From a virus (lineage: Duplodnaviria > Heunggongvirae > Uroviricota > Caudoviricetes): a stretch of 45,585 nucleotides of DNA. The notes under the pieces are model-generated. The model worked only from the letters and a program-made list of their open reading frames with translations, was not told the origin of the DNA and did not search any database. The DNA is taken from positions 1-45,585 of IMG/VR virus record IMGVR_UViG_648276647_000019, one strand, 5' to 3'. Of this stretch, positions 16,456 through 44,083 are shown piece by piece. The position numbers and the translations under genes are program-made. Position 1 is the first letter of the stretch; each line of letters begins with the position of its first letter.

Positions 16456-16677
16456 ATGACAATGGACAGAATGACAACCGGTGCATCATACGGCGTGTCG
16501 GCGGCCACAACAATTTATTCTCTCCTGGATTCCTTCACCCACGATGAGTGGGCTGCAATCGGTATTCTGGGCGGGTTGTTTTTTGGTGCGCTGACGTGGA
16601 TCACCAATATTTATTTTCAGCACCGGCGACTGAAACTGGAAGAGCAGCAGAGGAATGGCGTTAAAAACGAAAGTTAA
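16456..16677 (+). CDS. Class II holin (pinholin-like, phage 21 S21 type)
   Basis: About 70 aa, two TM segments, the first Gly/Ala/Ser-rich; dual-start-like N-terminus (M-T-M); directly precedes a SAR endolysin. Confidence 0.85.
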   Translation: MTMDRMTTGASYGVSAATTIYSLLDSFTHDEWAAIGILGGLFFGALTWITNIYFQHRRLKLEEQQRNGVKNES

Positions 16678-17194
16678 ATACGGCCTGTCAGCCGCTGTTC
16701 TGGCGCTGATTGCTGCCGGTGCGTCTGCTCCTCAGATACTCGACCAGTTTCTGAATGAGAAAGAAGGTAATCACACAACGGCATACCGTGATGGTTCCGG
16801 TATATGGACCATCTGCCGTGGTACCACCATGGTGGATGGTAAGCCTGTTATTCCTGGCATGAAACTGACGAAGGAAAAATGCGACCAGGTTAATGCCATT
16901 GAGCGGGATAAGGCGCTGGCATGGGTGGAGAAAAACATCAAAGTGCCACTGACCGAACCCCAGAAAGCGGGTATTGCGTCATTCTGCTCCTATAACATTG
17001 GCCCCGGTAAGTGTTTCCCGTCGACGTTTTATAAGCGGCTGAATGCCGGTGATCGTAAGGGCGCATGCGAGGCGATTCGCTGGTGGATAAAGGACGGTGG
17101 ACGCGACTGCCGTATCCGTTCAAATAACTGCTACGGTCAGGTTGTTCGCCGTGACCAGGAGAGCGCATTAGCCTGTTGGGGTATCGACAGATAA
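16655..17194 (+). CDS. SAR endolysin (lysozyme with N-terminal signal-anchor-release domain)
   Basis: N-terminal weakly hydrophobic Ala/Gly-rich segment (LSAAVLALIAAGASAP) followed by a lysozyme-type catalytic region; overlaps holin 3' end. Confidence 0.9.
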   Translation: MALKTKVKYGLSAAVLALIAAGASAPQILDQFLNEKEGNHTTAYRDGSGIWTICRGTTMVDGKPVIPGMKLTKEKCDQVNAIERDKALAWVEKNIKVPLTEPQKAGIASFCSYNIGPGKCFPSTFYKRLNAGDRKGACEAIRWWIKDGGRDCRIRSNNCYGQVVRRDQESALACWGIDR

Positions 17195-17468: not shown

Positions 17469-18038
17469 ATGAATATGATGACCGTGCCATTCCACGGCGC
17501 AGAGCTTTATGTTGTCAACCACAACGGCGAGCCGTACACCCCAATGAAACCTATCGTTGAGGGAATGGGTATGACCTGGCAGTCTCAACACCGCAAGTTG
17601 ATGGAGAGATTTAAGACCTGCATCATCGAAATGATGATGCAGCTCCCCGGTGATACTCAGCGTCGTCTGGTTATCTGTCTTGCTTTACGTAAACTTGCAG
17701 GTTGGCTGCAAACCATCAGCCCTAACAAAGTCCGCCCTGAAATCCGCGACAAGGTAATCCAGTATCAGGAAGAGTGTGACGATGTGCTCTATGAATACTG
17801 GACTAAAGGTTTTGTCGTTAATCCCCGTCGAATGAGCGTGATGGAGGAACTCAACCAGGCATGTGCTGACATGAAAAGGGATAAAAACATCGCCAGTCTG
17901 TATGGTGCAGGGTTAAACGAATGGAAATCAGTCAAAGCGGCTCATGTATCAAAAATTCGTGCGCTGGTGGATGAGGCAAACTTGCTGATCGGCTTTGTCA
18001 TGGCGGATACAGGGAAGGGGAAAACCACCGGGACATGA
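17469..18038 (+). CDS. Phage antirepressor (Ant-type, P22 AR N-terminal domain-like)
   Basis: N-terminus MNMMTVPFHGAELYVVNHNGEPYTPMKPIVEGMGMTWQSQHRKL matches the antirepressor N-terminal pattern as I recall it. Confidence 0.7.
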   Translation: MNMMTVPFHGAELYVVNHNGEPYTPMKPIVEGMGMTWQSQHRKLMERFKTCIIEMMMQLPGDTQRRLVICLALRKLAGWLQTISPNKVRPEIRDKVIQYQEECDDVLYEYWTKGFVVNPRRMSVMEELNQACADMKRDKNIASLYGAGLNEWKSVKAAHVSKIRALVDEANLLIGFVMADTGKGKTTGT

Positions 18039-18048
18039 AATAAAAGTA

Positions 18049-18086
18049 AAACCCCGATTGCACGAACAGTCGGGGTTTTTTGTTTC
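18049..18086 (+). terminator. Intrinsic terminator after the antirepressor gene
   Basis: CCCCGA...UCGGGG stem followed by UUUUUUGUUU. Confidence 0.65.
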
Positions 18087-18112
18087 TGACCTTGAGTAAG
18101 ACAAGGGAGAAC

Positions 18113-18295
18113 ATGGGGAAGTATAAACGAATCCTGTTGAGGTTGACTATGAAAAACGGCCTTGAACTGAAGGCGCCTGTAACTGATGACATCAGCAGAG
18201 CGCTGGCCTTTGCTATTAAGTGGGTGGCTGTTGGCATCGCTGTGTCTCCGATACTGTATGGGCTGGCAAAACTGGTCATTGCACTGAAATCATGA
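18113..18295 (+). CDS. Hypothetical small protein with C-terminal TM segment (60 aa)
   Basis: ATG 18113 after AAGGGAG; hydrophobic C-terminus (WVAVGIAVSPILYGLAKLVIAL). Confidence 0.4.
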   Translation: MGKYKRILLRLTMKNGLELKAPVTDDISRALAFAIKWVAVGIAVSPILYGLAKLVIALKS

Positions 18296-18725: not shown

Positions 18726-19193
18726 ATGAACCGCATAACGACGTACGTAATAATATTATTGCTGGTAGTGACTGCAGCGCTGGCATGGACAACGGACCAT
18801 TACTACCGTAACGCTGTCACTTACAAAGAGCAGCGCGACAAAAACGCCGGAGAGCTGAAACTGGCGAACGCGACCATTACTGACATGCAGCAGCGTCAGC
18901 GTGATGTTGCTGCACTTGATGCCAGATACTCAAGGGAGTTAGCTGATGCGAAAGCTGAAAATGATGCTCTGCGTGCTGATGTTGCCGCTGGTCGTCGCCG
19001 GTTGCGTGTCAGGGCAGTCTGCCCCACCGTGTCCGCAGATAAAACCGCCACCGCCACCGGCGTGGCTGATGCAGCCAGCCCCGGACTTACTGACGCCGCT
19101 CAGCGGGATTATTTCATCCTCAGGGAACGAATCGCAACCAGCGACAAAATGATTCGGGGATTGCAGGCGTACATCAGGAAGGAATGTCAGTAA
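18726..19193 (+). CDS. Rz: Spanin inner-membrane subunit Rz
   Basis: Strong similarity to lambda Rz as recalled (RDKNAGELKLANATITDMQQRQRDVAALD...AENDALRADVAAGRRRL). Confidence 0.9.
   Translation: MNRITTYVIILLLVVTAALAWTTDHYYRNAVTYKEQRDKNAGELKLANATITDMQQRQRDVAALDARYSRELADAKAENDALRADVAAGRRRLRVRAVCPTVSADKTATATGVADAASPGLTDAAQRDYFILRERIATSDKMIRGLQAYIRKECQ
18946..19152 (+). CDS. Rz1: Spanin outer-membrane lipoprotein Rz1 (embedded in Rz, +1 frame)
   Basis: Lipobox LVVAGC and proline-rich core PPPPPAW, embedded in Rz as in lambda. Confidence 0.85.
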   Translation: MRKLKMMLCVLMLPLVVAGCVSGQSAPPCPQIKPPPPPAWLMQPAPDLLTPLSGIISSSGNESQPATK

Positions 19194-19228
19194 AAAAAGC
19201 AGGGCCGGCTCAGACCCTGCAGAATATA
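19194..19228 (-). terminator. Minus-strand intrinsic terminator (GCAGGG/CCCUGC stem plus U7)
   Basis: Plus strand shows A7 then hairpin; the U-tract exists only on the minus strand. A second similar element (CCCC-GGAA-GGGG) lies at 19252-19275. Confidence 0.4.
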
Positions 19229-19410
19229 CGATGAATATTAAGATAAGTTATAAAAATAAAACCCCGGAAGGGGCTCCTATGCCGTCATAAGAATAGTAAG
19301 AATGGTTCCGGGGGTATATGGATAAAAAAATTCAGAATGAAAAAAAGTAATTCTGGTTGTTATTTTGAGTGTTTATGCGAAATGCGCCTTACTATAATGC
19401 GAAATGCTGA

Positions 19411-19440
19411 ATGACAAATAAAAAAAAGGAGCCGAAACGG
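19411..19440 (-). terminator. Minus-strand intrinsic terminator (GGAGCC/GGCUCC stem plus U8)
   Basis: Plus strand A8-GGAGCCGAAACGGCUCC; U-tract on minus strand; adjacent to the TATAATGCGAAAT element. Confidence 0.4.
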
Positions 19441-19633
19441 CTCCGAAAAATAAGTCATCAAAGTTTACACGCGTATTCAATTACGGCTTTGCAGTGCTCG
19501 TCTGCGGTTAATATCGTACAGAAACATAATAATCTTCGTACACCATGAAAATGTAACCAGATACTAAACACTGGCGCATGCCATGAACATATTCTACTGG
19601 CTGAAAAGCCTTATCCATAAGGAGCAAAAAACA

Positions 19634-19816
19634 ATGCCTGAGATTAAAGATATTGTTACTGATGAACTGGTAAAAAATGCCCTTAAATCAGAGGTTGTCA
19701 CTCTGGCTGTAAAAACTCAGATTAAGAACACGCTGGAGCCTCAGATTGAGGTGGCAGTTGATAATGCACTGTCAGATATTCTGGGCGTCATGAGTACAGG
19801 TGACACCGGAGAATAA
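19634..19816 (+). CDS. Hypothetical small protein (60 aa)
   Basis: ATG 19634 after AAGGAG; ORF-track start at 19583 lacks an RBS. Confidence 0.4.
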   Translation: MPEIKDIVTDELVKNALKSEVVTLAVKTQIKNTLEPQIEVAVDNALSDILGVMSTGDTGE

Positions 19817-20171
19817 CAGCGGTTGTTGCTGTATTTGTTCCTCACCGGGCCAGCCTAATCGCTGGGGAAGAACGAAAAAACTTCAATTGCTTGCAAAGCT
19901 GGAACGTCTGGAGAAACAAGGACAGTTTTTATTACCGGGATTCGATAAAGGTATTCAAGCCTGACACATCATGCGCCGTATCGTCGCCGTATTCCTGCAT
20001 TAACCATGACCGCTGCTGATAACCCGGCGCGAGTGTGCGGGAATAATCAGAAACGATGCACACCGGGTTTTTACCGCGTTTATGATTCGCGGGTTTGCCC
20101 CTCATGCTCGCCGGCCCTGCGCGGGGGTGGAAGAAGCGGGGTATTATGAATGCACAGAGAGAGATTAATTT

Positions 20172-20714
20172 ATGGGGATTATCGTTTCATCGTCACCGCT
20201 CAGATTACCCGGCGGATATGATGCCGTCCCTGTCGTTTCATCCGGCACGCCGGTTCTGGGCAATCTGCCTTCTGTTTTTGTCATTCCGACCGGACTCCGT
20301 AAAAAACTACAGCCCGCCAACAGAACGGGGCTGGGGAGTACCGACATCCAGGGGAATGTCATCACCACGCAGGAGGACAGTCGCAGTATTCTGTCAGTAG
20401 TGAACACTTATCTTCAGGAGTCATTAACGGACAGTGAGCTCAGTTTTATTCTTCAGCACAGAAAGCATTTTGTTTTTACTGCCGGCATGGGCGACCGGCG
20501 GCAGGACTATTGCTGGCGTTTCGGGATGATAACCAACTGGCACGGGAAGGATGTGAGTGATTTGTTGATGCAGCCGTGGGTCTACGCCAGTGAACATTAC
20601 AACTTCAGGCTCACATTTGACGGTGAAAGCGGGCAGATGACGCTGACGGACACTCATTATGGTGACAACAATAAGTGGGGAAGTCTGCGTTATCTCACCA
20701 TAGAGGTGAAATAA
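20172..20714 (+). CDS. Hypothetical protein (180 aa), candidate moron between lysis genes and cos
   Basis: ORF with ATG start; no recognisable motif. Confidence 0.45.
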   Translation: MGIIVSSSPLRLPGGYDAVPVVSSGTPVLGNLPSVFVIPTGLRKKLQPANRTGLGSTDIQGNVITTQEDSRSILSVVNTYLQESLTDSELSFILQHRKHFVFTAGMGDRRQDYCWRFGMITNWHGKDVSDLLMQPWVYASEHYNFRLTFDGESGQMTLTDTHYGDNNKWGSLRYLTIEVK

Positions 20715-20750
20715 GGGGAACGAACAGACAGATAATGGGAGAGAGAGTTG

Positions 20751-21011
20751 ATGAAATCAGGAGAAACAGAAACTGTGTTGTTAACACAGGAGCCTGTGCA
20801 GATTACGGATGGTTCAGTATGGGCTTATGTCCAGCCGCTGGCGGGGTCAGGAGGAATTGCTGTGCAGTATTGTTTGTCTGGTGAAAAACCTTCACAAGCC
20901 AGCAGCTGGCATACGATAAGACATGATGTAACGATTGGTCCACCTCTGGTCTGTTGGTTACGCCTCCCTGAGGGAAGAGGGGCTGTTGTGGTTACTCAGT
21001 GGACCTCCTGA
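20751..21011 (+). CDS. Hypothetical protein (86 aa)
   Basis: ATG 20751 after GGGAGAGAGAG; 37 nt after the upstream gene. Confidence 0.45.
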   Translation: MKSGETETVLLTQEPVQITDGSVWAYVQPLAGSGGIAVQYCLSGEKPSQASSWHTIRHDVTIGPPLVCWLRLPEGRGAVVVTQWTS

Positions 21012-21039
21012 TTTTTCAGGGTCCTTTCCGGCAGTTTGA

Positions 21040-21130
21040 GTCGCTGCGGGGCGGCAGCGGCGCAGATTTTCACTGTTTATGAAAATTTTTCAGGAAAAAT
21101 CGTGTCGGTACTTATTTTATATAACTCGTT
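21040..21130. other. cos site (cosN with lambda-like 12-nt cohesive-end sequence GGGCGGCAGCGG at 21049-21060; cosB-like region follows)
   Basis: GGGCGGCAGCGGCGCAGATTTTCACTGTTTATGAAAATTTTTCAGG parallels the lambda left end GGGCGGCGACCTCGCGGGTTTTCGCTATTTATGAAAATTTTCCGG (recalled); about 175 nt upstream of Nu1. Confidence 0.7.
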
Positions 21131-21235
21131 GTTTTTAATTGATATGTGATGAAAAGATACCGTCATGTGAATGTGGGAGTAAGCCATTTTCAGGCTGTTT
21201 TGTGTCGGAACTGATTTTTGATAAAGATTTGATCC

Positions 21236-37142: not shown

Positions 37143-39962
37143 GTGGGAAAGGGCAGTAAAAAAGGGCACACGCCGCATGAAGCCCCGGATAACCTGAAAT
37201 CCACACAACGGCTGAGTGTGACTGACGTGCTGAGTGAAGGTCCGGTTGTGGGGCCTGTTAACGGGCTGAACAGCCTGCTGATTAATGACACGCCGGTTGT
37301 GGATCCTGCCGGAAACGTGAACCTGCATGGCGTGACCGTGGTTTACCGGACCGGAGAGGAGGAGCAGACGCCGCCGGAGGGATTTACCGCTTCCGGTGCG
37401 GAGACGGTATTGGGTACGGAAGTGAAGCATGACGCGCCGGTCACCCGGACCATCACGTCGGCAAATATCGACCGTCTGCGCTTTACCCTGGGGGTGCAGG
37501 CCCTGGTGGAAACCACATCAGAGGGGGACCGCAATCCGTCAGAGGTCCGTCTGCAGGTTCAGATCCGGCGTGACGGTGACTGGGTGACGGAAAAGGACAT
37601 CACCATTAAGGGGAAAACCACCTCGCAGTATCTGGCCTCCGTGGTGGTGGATAACCTGCCGCCGCGGCCGTTTGATATCCGGGTGTGCCGGGTGACGCCG
37701 GACAGCACCACTGATCAGCTGCAGAATAAAACCTTCTGGTCATCGTACACCGGACTCATCGATGTGAAACAGAGTTATCCCGGTACCGCCGTGGCCTTTG
37801 TGCAGGTGGAGTCAGCGCAGTACGGCAGTCAGCAGGTGCGGATTAATTATCACATCCGGGGAAAGATTGTCCGCGTGCCCTCTAACTATAACGCCATTGC
37901 CAGACGGTACCACGGGCTCTGGGACGGTACATTCATGCCTGCGTGGACGGATAACCCGGCCTGGTGTCTGCTGGATATGCTGACCCACCCGCGTTACGGC
38001 ATGGGAACCTCCCTGACGGTGGACGATATTGATATCTGGTCCCTGTACGCCATTGCGCAGTACTGTGACCAGCCCGTGCAGGATGGTTACGGCAGCTCGG
38101 AGCCGCGGATGGCCTGTAATGCGGTGCTGTCCACACAGCGCAGGGCCTGGGATGTGCTGGCTGACTTCTGTTCGCTGATGCGCTGTATGCCGGTGTGGAA
38201 CGGACAGACGCTGACGTTTGTGCAGGACCGGCCGTCGGATAAGGTGTGGACTTATCACCGCAGTAATGTGGTGATGCCGGATGACGGGGCACCGTTCCGT
38301 TACAGCTTCAGTGCCCTGAAGGACCGTCATAATGCCGTTGAGGTGAACTGGGTTGATCCGGATAACGGCTGGAAGACGGCAACCGAACTGGTGGAGGACA
38401 CAGAGGCCATCCGCCGTTACGGACGTAATGTCACCCGGATGGAGGCCTTTGGCTGTACCAGCCGGGGACAGGCGCACCGCGCCGGGCTGTGGCTGATTAA
38501 AACGGAGCTGCTGGAGACGCAGACGGTGGACTTCAGCGTGGGCGCAGAAGGGCTTCGCCATGTGCCGGGCGATGTCATTGAAATCTGTGATGATGATTAT
38601 GCAGGCGTGAGCACTGGCGGGCGTATTCTGGCCGTTGACCTTCCGGCACGGACCCTGACGCTCGACCGTGAAATCACGCTGCCGTCTTCCGGCACCACGC
38701 TGATAAGCCTGGTCGACGGGAAGGGGGAGCCGGTCAGCGTGGCGGTTCAGTCCGTCACCGACGGCGTGAAGGTGACCGTGAGCCGTGTGCCTGACGGCGT
38801 GGCAGAATACAGCGTGTGGGGGCTGAAGCTGCCGGTGCTGCGTCAGCGCCTGTTCCGCTGTGTGAGCATCCGCGAGAACGATGACGGCACATATGCCATC
38901 ACCGCCGTGCAGCATGTGCCGGAAAAAGAAGCCATTGTGGATAAGGGGGCCCGTTTTATGCCCCGGCCGTCAGCCGGTCCGGTGGCATTATCCCGGCTGA
39001 CAACGGCGATAATTTCCGGTCATGACGGCATCAGCGTCAGGGTCTGCTGGGCGGCACCGCAGGCAGGCAGCGGCTGGCAGTTCAGGGTCCGGCTCATGAC
39101 AACCGCACCGGACGATGACAGCGGTGACGTCCGGTGGCTGTTGTCCGAAAAGGTGACCCGTGACACGGAGACCGTTTTCTCTTCCCTGGCACAGGGCGAT
39201 TACCGGGTCAGCCTCAGTGCCACAGAGGGCACCGGACAGTACTGTGACCCCGTCACGGCGGATTTTACCGTCGGCAGTCCGCCGCCTCCGGTCAGGACGG
39301 AGGTCATTCCCGGATTCTGTAAAGTGACGCTGGTTCCGCATCAGGCGCAGGCACAGACGGACGTGACATATGATTTCTGGTTTTCGGAACAGAGACTGAC
39401 AGATCCACAGAAGGCGGAAACCACGGGGACCTGGCTGGGGCGGGGGCTTTTCTGCACTCGGGAAAACCTGACGGACAGCAGCCATGATTACTGGTTTTAT
39501 GTGCGCAGCGTGAGCGCGACCGGAAAGTCGGCGTTTACGGAGGTGTCCGGCAGGCCGTCAGCCTCAGAGGGGGCGATTGATACGGAAATGTTGTCACCGG
39601 CACTTCAGTCCCGGATAGGCAGTGTTCCGGAGAGCGGGCATATTGACAGCGTGTCCGCGCGGCCGGACCAGACGGTGAGCCGCCGGGTGACCTGGTCCCC
39701 GTCTGACACGGATGCCCGGGAGCTGACCGCCGTGATCAGCGTGGTTTCAGAAGGGTACACAGGGACACTGACGCTGACGGCGGGCGAAAAAACATTTTCT
39801 TATTCCGGTGGCCAGTTGCCGGTGTCCGGCTCTCTGGTGGTGACGGCAGGGATCACCCCGCCGTCAGACATTGTTCTGTCCCTGAGTGCCGCGGAGGGCC
39901 GGTGTACGGCATCGGCGGGGCTGACCGTTTCGCGGTTATCCGGTTCATTCAGCGGAGGGTAA
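37143..39962 (+). CDS. J: Central tail fibre / tail tip protein J (939 aa; lambda-like to about residue 870, divergent shorter C-terminus)
   Basis: N-terminal about 870 aa closely parallel lambda gpJ as recalled; the C-terminus differs and the protein is about 190 aa shorter than lambda J. Confidence 0.9.
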   Translation: MGKGSKKGHTPHEAPDNLKSTQRLSVTDVLSEGPVVGPVNGLNSLLINDTPVVDPAGNVNLHGVTVVYRTGEEEQTPPEGFTASGAETVLGTEVKHDAPVTRTITSANIDRLRFTLGVQALVETTSEGDRNPSEVRLQVQIRRDGDWVTEKDITIKGKTTSQYLASVVVDNLPPRPFDIRVCRVTPDSTTDQLQNKTFWSSYTGLIDVKQSYPGTAVAFVQVESAQYGSQQVRINYHIRGKIVRVPSNYNAIARRYHGLWDGTFMPAWTDNPAWCLLDMLTHPRYGMGTSLTVDDIDIWSLYAIAQYCDQPVQDGYGSSEPRMACNAVLSTQRRAWDVLADFCSLMRCMPVWNGQTLTFVQDRPSDKVWTYHRSNVVMPDDGAPFRYSFSALKDRHNAVEVNWVDPDNGWKTATELVEDTEAIRRYGRNVTRMEAFGCTSRGQAHRAGLWLIKTELLETQTVDFSVGAEGLRHVPGDVIEICDDDYAGVSTGGRILAVDLPARTLTLDREITLPSSGTTLISLVDGKGEPVSVAVQSVTDGVKVTVSRVPDGVAEYSVWGLKLPVLRQRLFRCVSIRENDDGTYAITAVQHVPEKEAIVDKGARFMPRPSAGPVALSRLTTAIISGHDGISVRVCWAAPQAGSGWQFRVRLMTTAPDDDSGDVRWLLSEKVTRDTETVFSSLAQGDYRVSLSATEGTGQYCDPVTADFTVGSPPPPVRTEVIPGFCKVTLVPHQAQAQTDVTYDFWFSEQRLTDPQKAETTGTWLGRGLFCTRENLTDSSHDYWFYVRSVSATGKSAFTEVSGRPSASEGAIDTEMLSPALQSRIGSVPESGHIDSVSARPDQTVSRRVTWSPSDTDARELTAVISVVSEGYTGTLTLTAGEKTFSYSGGQLPVSGSLVVTAGITPPSDIVLSLSAAEGRCTASAGLTVSRLSGSFSGG

Positions 39963-39963
39963 T

Positions 39964-40737
39964 ATGCCGGAGGCAATCAGAATTTCAGGTATCCTGCAGG
40001 ATGGTACGGGGAGACCGGTGACGGACTGTACCATTGTCCTGAAGGCCAGGGTGACCACACAGGATGTTATTGTGAAAACCGCCGGGCACGGAAGCGTGGA
40101 TCCGGCGGGGTATTATGCCATGGATGTTTTTCCCGGTGAGTATGAGGTGATCCTGTGGATGGAGAAACAGCCACCCGCGCATGTGGGGGTGATAACGGTA
40201 TACCAGGATTCTCCGTCCGGCACCCTGAACAGTTTTCTGCTGACGCCGGGCATCAGTACGCTGACACCGGCAGTCCTGAAGCAGTTTGCCGATATTGCCG
40301 CCCACATCGATGTGCAGGAAGAAAAAATCAGTGACGCGGTTAAACGGGCAGAGGCTGCCGTCGGAAAAGCGCAGGCACTGACGGGCGTGCCCGATGAGCC
40401 GGGGTGCTTTGTGATGACGCGTGACGGCTGGCTGAAACGGGAACGTTTTGATGTGGCGGTGCAGAGCGTGTCAGACAACGGCACGATCGACGCGTCGTCG
40501 CACCAGTGTTTTTATATTGACGGGACCAAAAAACTGTCGCTGACATTCACCGGGCTGCCGGCTGGCCGGGTCGTGATGCTGGTTCTGGTGGTCAGGGGGA
40601 GTGGTGGCCAGCTGGTGTGGCCGGATACGCTGCACTGGTCGTGGGGGATCCCGCCGTCACCGGGAAAAACCCGGACGATTATTCCGGTGATCTGGGACGG
40701 GGAGGGGCTGTATGGAGGAGCCCCTGTCGTTATCTGA
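39964..40737 (+). CDS. Hypothetical tail-associated protein (257 aa), translationally coupled to J
   Basis: ATG 1 nt after the J stop with GGAGGG RBS; beta-rich composition; function unknown. Confidence 0.5.
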   Translation: MPEAIRISGILQDGTGRPVTDCTIVLKARVTTQDVIVKTAGHGSVDPAGYYAMDVFPGEYEVILWMEKQPPAHVGVITVYQDSPSGTLNSFLLTPGISTLTPAVLKQFADIAAHIDVQEEKISDAVKRAEAAVGKAQALTGVPDEPGCFVMTRDGWLKRERFDVAVQSVSDNGTIDASSHQCFYIDGTKKLSLTFTGLPAGRVVMLVLVVRGSGGQLVWPDTLHWSWGIPPSPGKTRTIIPVIWDGEGLYGGAPVVI

Positions 40738-42985: not shown

Positions 42986-44083
42986 TCAAGAGGTCTTGTT
43001 TCTGCTCTTTTGGAGTTCTTCAAAACGATTATGTAAAGATTTCGGATACAGTTCGGTATATACCTGCCATAGCACGTTTAATGAACGATGCCCTGTAACT
43101 TGAGCGACTTCCTCAATACTAAAACCAGCCTCAAATAAGCGACTTGCCCCTTCTCTACGCAAATCATGGTATCGCAGATCTTTAATACCTAATTTGCTTC
43201 TTACCCTCTGAAATCCTGCGGTAACAGAAGTGCTGTTATATGGAAAAATGAATTCTGATTTTTTTGGTTGTCGCTGGACGATATCCCAGGCTTCCCCAAG
43301 CAAGGCAACTTTCATATGGTTACCTTCCTTTTTACGTGGATCTTTCCTATCTCTTACTAGTATAGATTTTTGTTCTTGGTCGAGATCTTCCCATCGTAAC
43401 CGGCATAATTCTCCGATTCGCATACAGGACCACACAGAAAATTTGAGGATATCAACGAACGGAATTTTTGAGCATTTATGAGTAGATCGTTGTTGAAGGC
43501 CTTCAATGAGCATGTCCAGTTCATCAGATGCTGGTCTACGATTACGACGGTTTGATTTACCAATCAAACCGAGTTTAAGTAGATATGGACGAGCGCTTTT
43601 CGCCGGGTTTGATGTGTAATTGATTCCGTATACAGGTTTTGCCGCATCCAGAACACTGCCAAGATAACTAACATCGTGGCTGACTGTTGCTGGGCCTGCA
43701 CCAGCGTTGTTTCTTAGCCTGCAATGTTCAATTACGTCATTTTCTGTCAGTTCAGATAGTTTGATCGCGGATATGTCACTATCCATAAGCAGTTCCAGCA
43801 CATATCTTTTAGTACGGCCTGCTTTACCTCCGGCATTTGGGTCATTTAAATATTTGTGTAGTAAGTCACGGACTGTAAGTCCATCAACAGCATTTGATGA
43901 TGGAATGCCATATAGATCTAATTCCATCACTTTCTGTGCGCCCCATGTTTTGGCATGAGCATGTTTAGGGAATGTTTTGCTTTCCCTGTAAGTGATAACA
44001 CCTTTTTCTTTGATAATCACATTACAGCGATAGCGTGGTGTGCCATCGGATTTTAGTCGTTTCTCTATGTTATAGTACGCCAT
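42986..44083 (-). CDS. int: Tyrosine-type site-specific integrase (dusA-associated)
   Basis: 365 aa with tyrosine-recombinase catalytic-domain motifs (R...HDLRR...Y near the C-terminus); abuts the dusA 5' end. Confidence 0.95.
   Translation of the reverse strand: MAYYNIEKRLKSDGTPRYRCNVIIKEKGVITYRESKTFPKHAHAKTWGAQKVMELDLYGIPSSNAVDGLTVRDLLHKYLNDPNAGGKAGRTKRYVLELLMDSDISAIKLSELTENDVIEHCRLRNNAGAGPATVSHDVSYLGSVLDAAKPVYGINYTSNPAKSARPYLLKLGLIGKSNRRNRRPASDELDMLIEGLQQRSTHKCSKIPFVDILKFSVWSCMRIGELCRLRWEDLDQEQKSILVRDRKDPRKKEGNHMKVALLGEAWDIVQRQPKKSEFIFPYNSTSVTAGFQRVRSKLGIKDLRYHDLRREGASRLFEAGFSIEEVAQVTGHRSLNVLWQVYTELYPKSLHNRFEELQKSRNKTS

Follow-up and report, generated by a model that had tools for sequence, protein, structure and literature searches.

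A two-gene cassette between Rz and cos of a lambdoid Escherichia coli prophage may encode an accessory virion adhesin

What do small genes do when they stand between the lysis genes and the cos site of a lambdoid phage, where lambda carries bor? We addressed this question for a 45,585-nucleotide stretch of DNA, the IMG/VR virus record IMGVR_UViG_648276647_000019 (positions 1 to 45,585; hereafter the window), in which three plus-strand open reading frames (ORFs) of 60, 180 and 86 amino acids lie between Rz/Rz1 and cos. A preliminary description, made from the letters alone, had found no recognisable motif in them and had pointed out that this slot commonly holds lysogenic-conversion or exclusion genes. 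Our analysis agreed that these genes are non-core accessory cargo in the place of bor. For the second and third (ORF2 and ORF3), however, we arrived at another reading, to which we give a probability of about one half: they form a late-expressed, virion-associated accessory adhesin cassette. The pair is probably not a product of lysogenic conversion.

In order to establish that the genes are real, we compared ORF2 (20172-20714, plus strand, 180 amino acids) and ORF3 (plus strand, 20751-21011 from an ATG, 86 amino acids, or 87 amino acids from a TTG at 20748) with relatives that are 83-97% identical in DNA. The ratio of nonsynonymous to synonymous substitution rates (dN/dS) was 0.10-0.36 for ORF2 and 0.15-0.21 for ORF3, and in both genes substitutions were in excess at third codon positions, in exactly the frames called. 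Together with the family score of ORF1 given below, these results demonstrate that all three ORFs are genuine genes, and that ORF2 and ORF3 are under purifying selection. The ribosome-binding sites noticed earlier for the first and last ORF were also found, as AAGGAG before ORF1 and GGGAGAGAGAG before ORF3; ORF2 has a weak, purine-rich Shine-Dalgarno sequence, GAGAGAGA, at 20157-20164. This weak site, a truncated Rha gene immediately upstream and mosaic junctions at about 19804/19857 and 20145-20164 would suit recombinational debris, that is, a pair which hitch-hiked with the illegitimate recombination that destroyed the antirepressor gene and is functionless here. We regard this as very improbable: both genes are intact, with the low dN/dS and third-position bias just described, and the pair is kept in the window's order beside cos in two independent samples (loci L006 and L009).

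ORF2 matched no Pfam, NCBIfam, PHROG or PADLOC family, and its own family is rare: 9 clusters were counted in a set of 5.8e9 proteins and 22 representatives in one of 1.84e9. GTDB representative genomes and IMG/VR yielded no relatives. A tblastn search of INPHARED phage records gave one non-significant match only (E = 7), and a blastn search of 5,426 complete E. coli genomes with the ORF2/ORF3 cassette gave none. Part of this rarity is an artefact of under-counting in protein databases, because gene callers prefer overlapping frames. At L009 (2295-3523; Logan SRR024334) an intact ORF2 homologue with 96.5% DNA identity was missed by the gene caller, which chose a KilA-N ORF reading through in another frame and a minus-strand ORF instead. 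The family alignment has the core motifs VVNTYL, GDRR, TNWHGED and LTDxH. Six of the 22 representatives are large proteins, and profile searches placed the ORF2 domain at the C-terminus of four (P0023, P0028, P0030 and P0031) and internally in two (P0027 and P0029). There it is joined to He_PIG immunoglobulin (Ig) repeats, to CBM_5_12 together with a Peptidase_S74 fibre chaperone, or, with a weak signal, to the T7 tail-fibre N-terminal domain. Judged by these profile matches, the 140-residue domain of ORF2 also occurs at the distal ends of tail-fibre-like proteins.

The structure of ORF2 was then predicted with AlphaFold2. An alignment of 10 sequences gave a predicted local distance difference test score (pLDDT) of 47, which was unusable, and 26 sequences were needed for a model of high confidence, with a mean pLDDT of 85.6 and values above 90 at residues 40-180. 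In this model the first 33-35 residues or so are β-rich and of low confidence, and the α/β domain of 140 residues follows. Foldseek searches against BFVD and PDB gave no significant match, so that the structure search proposed in the preliminary description yielded a confident model and no assignment; profile searches with ORF2 and ORF3 against PDB sequences had no match either. The top Foldseek match, below significance, was monocin FtbP, a stand-alone receptor-binding protein of 177 amino acids in which an N-terminal β-hairpin serves as a latch and a stalk leads to the head at the C-terminus (PMC11830787). FtbP, to which the C-terminal domains of phage K gp144 are related, is thus close in length to ORF2 (177 versus 180 amino acids), and its latch, short helical part and C-terminal head correspond to the layout predicted for ORF2. 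ORF2 did not match Pfam PF16532, the Sf6-type tail-needle knob; it is not a member of that family, and by analogy it may resemble the tail-needle knob in function.

ORF3 ends 8 bp before cosQ and is the final gene before cos. It matched phrog_4772 (E 2.1e-6), as did all seven ORF3-family members in our alignment A3 (best 8.5e-28), and no Pfam, NCBIfam or PDB relative was found for it. The earlier statement that no motif could be recognised therefore stands for ORF2 and ORF3 as regards curated Pfam and NCBIfam families, but fails for ORF3 as a phrog_4772 member and for ORF1, which belongs to DUF826. Over 100 clusters make up the ORF3 family, almost all consisting of Salmonella proteins 77-80 amino acids long, with a 'W.QITDG' motif; ORF3 itself is a small all-β partner of ORF2. 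In every context examined the ORF3-like gene adjoins a protein with a variable distal domain, and the cassette either closely precedes the terminase genes or closely follows tail-fibre genes.

The first of these places is the one seen in the window. An ORF3-family gene lies directly before the terminase genes in 31 IMG/VR loci, in phage HK639 and in one Shiga toxin (Stx) prophage. The temperate IMG/VR loci have the order Rz, variable gene, ORF3-like gene, sometimes a metallopeptidase gene, and the small and large terminase genes TerS and TerL, which is the slot of the window. Two further types of partner were found here. The HK639_74 type occurs in HK639, in one Stx prophage and in 7 IMG/VR loci, and its C-terminal domain has a homologue in the C-terminal half of the Kagunavirus 'tail tip protein M'. 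A class of 147 amino acids occurs in 11 IMG/VR loci; it had looked Big_2/Ig-like by eye, an impression which Pfam did not confirm. Both classes begin with a common N-terminal motif, MIxTPxxxvIGGxxxxGIxvPGavvIGg. A hidden Markov model (HMM) of this motif matched the ORF2-family member P0018 in register (E 0.0035) and P0019, P0013 and P0015 weakly. The Stx prophage (L028; GCA_023211535.1, 2820-4055 and 7001-8671) carries RIP and SLT_beta genes, and between its lysis and HNH/terminase genes it has an ORF2-family gene, a 240-amino-acid gene of the HK639_74 type and an ORF3-like gene.

The second place is typical of Salmonella, where lambda-like, Mu-like and P2-like prophages carry an ORF2-like gene beside an ORF3-like gene, directly after the genes for tail fibres and DUF4376 assembly proteins; a DUF1353 gene consistently comes next (L002 8519-8893, L013 8672-9049 and L018 6802-7179). 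TtaP, a phospholipase A2 encoded in the typhoid-toxin islet, is a member of the DUF1353 family (PMC11525133), and the Salmonella unit would have three genes, one of them for a membrane-active enzyme. P2-like prophages also have a further partner, an ILEI lectin-like protein of 183 amino acids whose first 25 residues are 72% identical to those of a Salmonella ORF2-like protein and whose remainder is unrelated, so that by sequence comparison a conserved N-terminus appears with a swapped C-terminal domain. Adhesin genes of the gp38 type stand beside ORF3-like genes in some Salmonella prophages.

These neighbours raise the possibility that ORF3-family proteins are non-structural assembly chaperones for knobs or fibre tips, with ORF2 as a spare or alternative tip that would be swapped onto the fibre of the phage itself. 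Small ORF3-like proteins, always encoded beside a variable partner and in Salmonella among gp38-type adhesin and DUF4376 tail-fibre-assembly genes, would be expected from such a role. Nevertheless, neither DUF4376 nor gp38-type genes were found in the window, ORF3 showed no homology to known tail-fibre chaperones, and one member of its family, gp120 of phage Sajous1, has been detected in virions, though by 4 spectra only. We therefore consider a chaperone role rather unlikely.

The detection in Sajous1 comes from the lytic Kutterviruses. Sajous1 gp120 belongs to the ORF3 family (hhalign probability 97.3%, E 2.4e-11) and its neighbour gp119 is a knob protein; both were identified by liquid chromatography-tandem mass spectrometry in CsCl-purified virions, with 4 and 16 spectra, respectively (PMC10892097). 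By analogy, this supports a virion location for the window's pair without proving it. In Kuttervirus CBA120 the corresponding pair is orf225/orf226, in which the partner is a stand-alone tail-needle knob of the Sf6 type (orf226 versus PF16532, 5.8e-29), and this pair is 95-99% conserved in at least 130 Kuttervirus records. As in the window, a protein of about 77 amino acids is encoded beside one of about 170-180 amino acids with a short N-terminus and a distal 'knob', and the pair is encoded apart from the main tail module. In contrast, the Kuttervirus order is small protein then knob, whereas the window has the knob first (ORF2, then ORF3), and a Kuttervirus is a lytic myovirus while the window's phage is a temperate lambdoid siphovirus.

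The range of partners suggests a wider proposal, which we put forward only tentatively: ORF3-family proteins would be universal small adaptors that attach interchangeable, stand-alone, glycan-binding knobs to lambdoid, P2-like, Mu-like and Kuttervirus particles, encoded in a promoter-less mobile cassette that would act as an auxiliary host-recognition system independent of the phage's own fibres. The knob types would then be ORF2-type, ILEI lectin, Sf6 knob and gpM-extension type.

Would the cassette be expressed in the lysogen or late in the lytic cycle? Lambda late transcription runs from pR' under Q antitermination. ORF1 to ORF3 are all on the strand of the late operon, and no plus-strand terminator was found after ORF3 and before cos; ORF2 and ORF3 would therefore be made together with the virion proteins. 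The conserved cassette DNA begins only 8-27 bp 5' of the ORF2 ATG in independent loci, and thus the cassette has no promoter of its own. Our pattern scans for promoters and terminators, which are crude, found 2 promoter-like sites against 3.6 expected. The guanine-plus-cytosine (GC) content of the cassette is about 0.50, equal to its flanks and to the phage average. With no promoter or terminator found and no deviant GC content, the cassette does not resemble a moron in the sense of an autonomous transcription unit.

Signs of export or of a known defence system were also looked for. None of ORF1 to ORF3 has a signal peptide, a lipobox or a membrane segment; the prediction suggested in the preliminary description revealed no hydrophobic segment by the Kyte-Doolittle scale, on which the maximum 19-residue window was 0.77-1.25. 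No Pfam, NCBIfam or PHROG match of the Bor/Iss kind was obtained for the three proteins, and in view of this and of the missing hydrophobic segment a Bor-like lipoprotein or other exported conversion factor was rejected. A known defence system was rejected because searches of PADLOC-DB at E<=1 gave no match for ORF1 to ORF3, the Salmonella triads (DUF1353 included) or the minus-strand ORF described below. The Ser/Pro-rich N-terminus and the position as prophage cargo had suggested a type III secretion effector; we rejected this as unlikely because fusions of the domain to fibre-like proteins occur in non-enteric organisms and because the N-terminus is similar to the motif of the knob partners. 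Lambda bor itself is likewise optional cargo in the equivalent slot, but it is a minus-strand lipoprotein gene, expressed in the lysogen from its own promoter and with its own terminator, features which ORF1 to ORF3 do not have. Thus, of the proposed lysogenic-conversion or exclusion slot, the accessory nature of the cargo held up, while no Bor/Iss match, signal peptide, membrane segment or promoter above chance went with it.

A broader version of that proposal needs neither export nor a known family. ORF2 and ORF3 could be non-virion, 'moron'-type accessory genes that act in the lysogen or at lysis, for example as a sensor or decoy in the cytoplasm, with a fold of the receptor-binding type, that causes superinfection exclusion or abortive defence, as a released decoy that masks receptors on cell debris, or, in Salmonella, as part of a system completed by the adjacent DUF1353 phospholipase A2. 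The cassette is found at both of the sites that are classical for morons, namely after Rz (the window, L001, L006, L009 and L028) and, at the ends of prophages, after tail-fibre genes. Its occurrence is sporadic and rare, with 0 of 5,426 complete E. coli genomes, and it is portable between unrelated phage types. In Salmonella its neighbours include the phospholipase A2-family gene (PMC11525133) and defence-like islands with type III restriction-modification or DUF1266/DjlB/HSP70 genes. HK639 has in the equivalent slot an anti-defence gene, gene 72 (L026 1058-1378), which encodes an Acb2/Tad1-hairpin-domain protein of the anti-CBASS type and lies in the lysis-to-cos region, upstream of the phage's Rha-like gene and ORF3-like cassette. 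However, neither the window's proteins nor their Salmonella counterparts matched PADLOC, there is no own promoter on this late-operon strand and no signal peptide or lipobox, and the window has no DUF1353 gene. Moreover, relatives of the pair are detected in virions and the partner domains are those of virion tips. On this balance, we regard a non-virion role as possible, although doubtful.

Taken together, the evidence leads us to prefer the accessory adhesin. ORF2 and ORF3 would be a portable two-gene cassette whose insertion point is the extreme end of the packaged chromosome, with a decayed antirepressor gene on one side and cosQ on the other; it would be read as part of the late operon, which runs from pR' through S-R-Rz and across cos into the head and tail genes. 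ORF2 would be a small stand-alone 'knob', with its β-rich N-terminal segment as a putative docking element or latch and its 140-residue α/β domain as the equivalent of the distal end of other phages' tail-fibre-like proteins; ORF3 would be an adaptor or assembly factor for knob proteins. Most likely, the virion would display the pair on its surface as an auxiliary adhesin, which would bind the cell surface, probably through glycans, and modulate adsorption or host range. Attachment to the virion of the window's phage, the docking roles of the ORF2 N-terminus and of ORF3, and ligand binding are what we infer by analogy with the systems above. A precedent for the position comes from phage L, where dec, the gene for the capsid decoration protein, lies immediately upstream of the small terminase gene. 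Dec, too, is an accessory virion-surface protein of a lambdoid phage that is missing from close relatives, and a role in cell-surface binding has been suggested for it (PMC7602432). It differs in having an oligonucleotide/oligosaccharide-binding (OB) fold and in binding the capsid, and a search for homology of the pair to phage L Dec/Orf129 found none (hhalign probability 0.1%), so that the analogy is positional only.

Several observations weigh against this reading. The cassette spans unrelated tail architectures (lambda-like, Mu-like, P2-like, E217-like and Kuttervirus), which is awkward for a protein that requires a specific docking site. In the window the slot is the classic one for morons and about 16 kb separate it from the tail-tip genes, and the HMM of the common N-terminal motif had no match in the window's own ORF2. 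One E. coli prophage has ORF2 but lacks ORF3, and ORF3 without ORF2 is seen in many cases. The Salmonella pair travels with a gene of the DUF1353 phospholipase A2 family, at prophage ends and next to defence islands. Finally, the Sajous1 proteome also held some non-structural proteins, and 4-16 spectra are no proof of a structural role (PMC10892097). The preliminary description had named clear homology to structural or packaging proteins, conserved in this position across lambdoid phages, as the finding that would overturn lysogenic conversion or exclusion. Our evidence leans that way, because the ORF2 domain occurs in tail-fibre-like proteins, the ORF3 family stands before terminase genes and the Kuttervirus pair was detected in virions; the moron alternative is weakened only, because the cassette is rare and not conserved across lambdoid phages.

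ORF1 is a separate case. The preliminary description had listed it from 19583, a position where an in-frame ATG does exist but would give 77 amino acids; its length of 60 amino acids was right, with a start at 19634. The match to Pfam DUF826 begins at residue 18 of the 77-residue form, and AAGGAG (19619-19624) lies 9 nucleotides 5' of the ATG at 19634; hence the form at 19634-19816 (plus strand, 60 amino acids, acidic, isoelectric point 4.3) is the likely gene. ORF1 scored 66.3 bits against DUF826 (PF05696; cut-off 25, E 2.7e-18, profile positions 1-54 of 75) and also matched phrog_311 (E 1e-20). Profile searches, as proposed at the outset, thus gave DUF826 for ORF1, phrog_4772 for ORF3 and, for ORF2, a domain present in fibre-like proteins. 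The usual place of DUF826 is near the lysis genes of lambdoid and Stx prophages, as for ORF1 (PMC10462455). Neither Pfam nor PHROGs annotates a function for DUF826, and the one paper found on it assigns none. ORF1 and ORF2 occur together only in the window and in one E. coli prophage. ORF1 is a separate, widespread, small acidic cytoplasmic protein that is loosely linked to the ORF2/ORF3 pair.

Between ORF1 and ORF2, about 350 bp (19800-20150) had been overlooked and proved not to be an empty spacer. The final 35 codons of a Rha-family antirepressor gene remain at 19857-19964 (plus strand) as a pseudogene fragment, which shares 94% amino acid identity with residues 171-205 of a 205-residue E. 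coli Rha-family regulator and matches ORF11CD3 and phrog_20738. The DNA from 19857 to 20135/20147 is 88-90% identical to more than 3000 E. coli genomes, and by megablast 19857-20135 was the sole part of 19200-21235 to match complete E. coli genomes or isolated phages. A conserved minus-strand ORF of 57 amino acids (19932-20105) overlaps the Rha gene at its 3' end and is 80% identical in amino acids to an annotated 'hypothetical protein' of 60 residues (L012 3076-3258). Its relatives are annotated in E. coli prophages and lambda-like phages, in the latter as the final annotated gene before cos. In Lambda_4C10 and mEp460-type phages the segment with this ORF lies about 130 bp from the right end, and ORF2-ORF3 is therefore an insertion of about 880 bp between the segment and cosQ. 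The position of cos, assumed in the preliminary description, was confirmed by alignment with the physical right end of the linear lambda-like record Lambda_4C10, which reads ...GGGTCCTTTCCGGCGATCCGACAGGTTACG and then continues into adapter-like sequence. On the plus strand of the window, the cosQ-like GGGTCCTTTCCGG is at 21019-21031 and the cosN position GGGCGGCAGCGG follows 17 nucleotides later at 21049-21060.

The AT-rich spacer after Rz contains three strong hairpins that resemble intrinsic terminators, with T-runs on the minus strand (19199-19220, 19258-19277 and 19428-19444); terminator-like sites numbered 8 against 2.1 expected in the pattern scan. No minus-strand gene lies directly upstream of these hairpins, which could be left over from a minus-strand moron of the bor type or could shield the lysis genes from antisense transcription. 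Inspection by eye also showed an 11-bp direct repeat, ATGCGAAATGC, at 19375-19385 and 19397-19407. No Rfam match above noise was found in the region.

The rest of the window agrees with an E. coli prophage of the lambdoid type. Its final 1.4 kb (dusA-pspG) is 99.9% identical to E. coli chromosomes, and a tyrosine integrase gene (42986-44083, minus strand) abuts dusA. The late region has a lysozyme gene (16655-17194), an intact antirepressor gene (P22_AR_N plus ORF11CD3; 17469-18038) between the endolysin and Rz genes, and Rz (18726-19193) with embedded Rz1 (18946-19152), which form the upstream border of the three-ORF region. Downstream of cos are Nu1 (from 21236) and then gpA, and the head genes are about 86% identical to those of phage 21-like E. 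coli phages. A plus-strand ORF of 71 amino acids (18080-18295; phrog_1115, E 2.4e-45) is also present between the antirepressor gene and Rz, and it is overlapped by a sub-threshold, minus-strand Rfam match resembling sar RNA (18044-18128; 25 bits versus 43). In the tail region, the gpJ-like protein (region 37143-40737) has only 939 amino acids and no Pfam Phage_Tail_Tip domain, the C-terminal receptor-binding domain, at E<0.001, and an ORF of 257 amino acids with a 'prophage tail fibre N-terminal' domain starts 1 nucleotide after the gpJ-like gene. The central fibre tip of the window's phage may thus be rearranged.

In summary, the cassette is a rare member of a recurrent type, within the accessory or receptor-binding virion proteins of phages, and no description of this type was found in a full-text literature search. 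The type spans Salmonella and E. coli prophages, one of them an Stx prophage, as well as at least 130 Kuttervirus records. If our reading is correct, the 'bor slot' would hold a second, portable host-recognition module here rather than a virulence or exclusion gene. ORF2 would then add a new domain family to the phage receptor-binding repertoire, and the cassette would offer a handle for host-range engineering, in which the knob is swapped and the small partner is kept.

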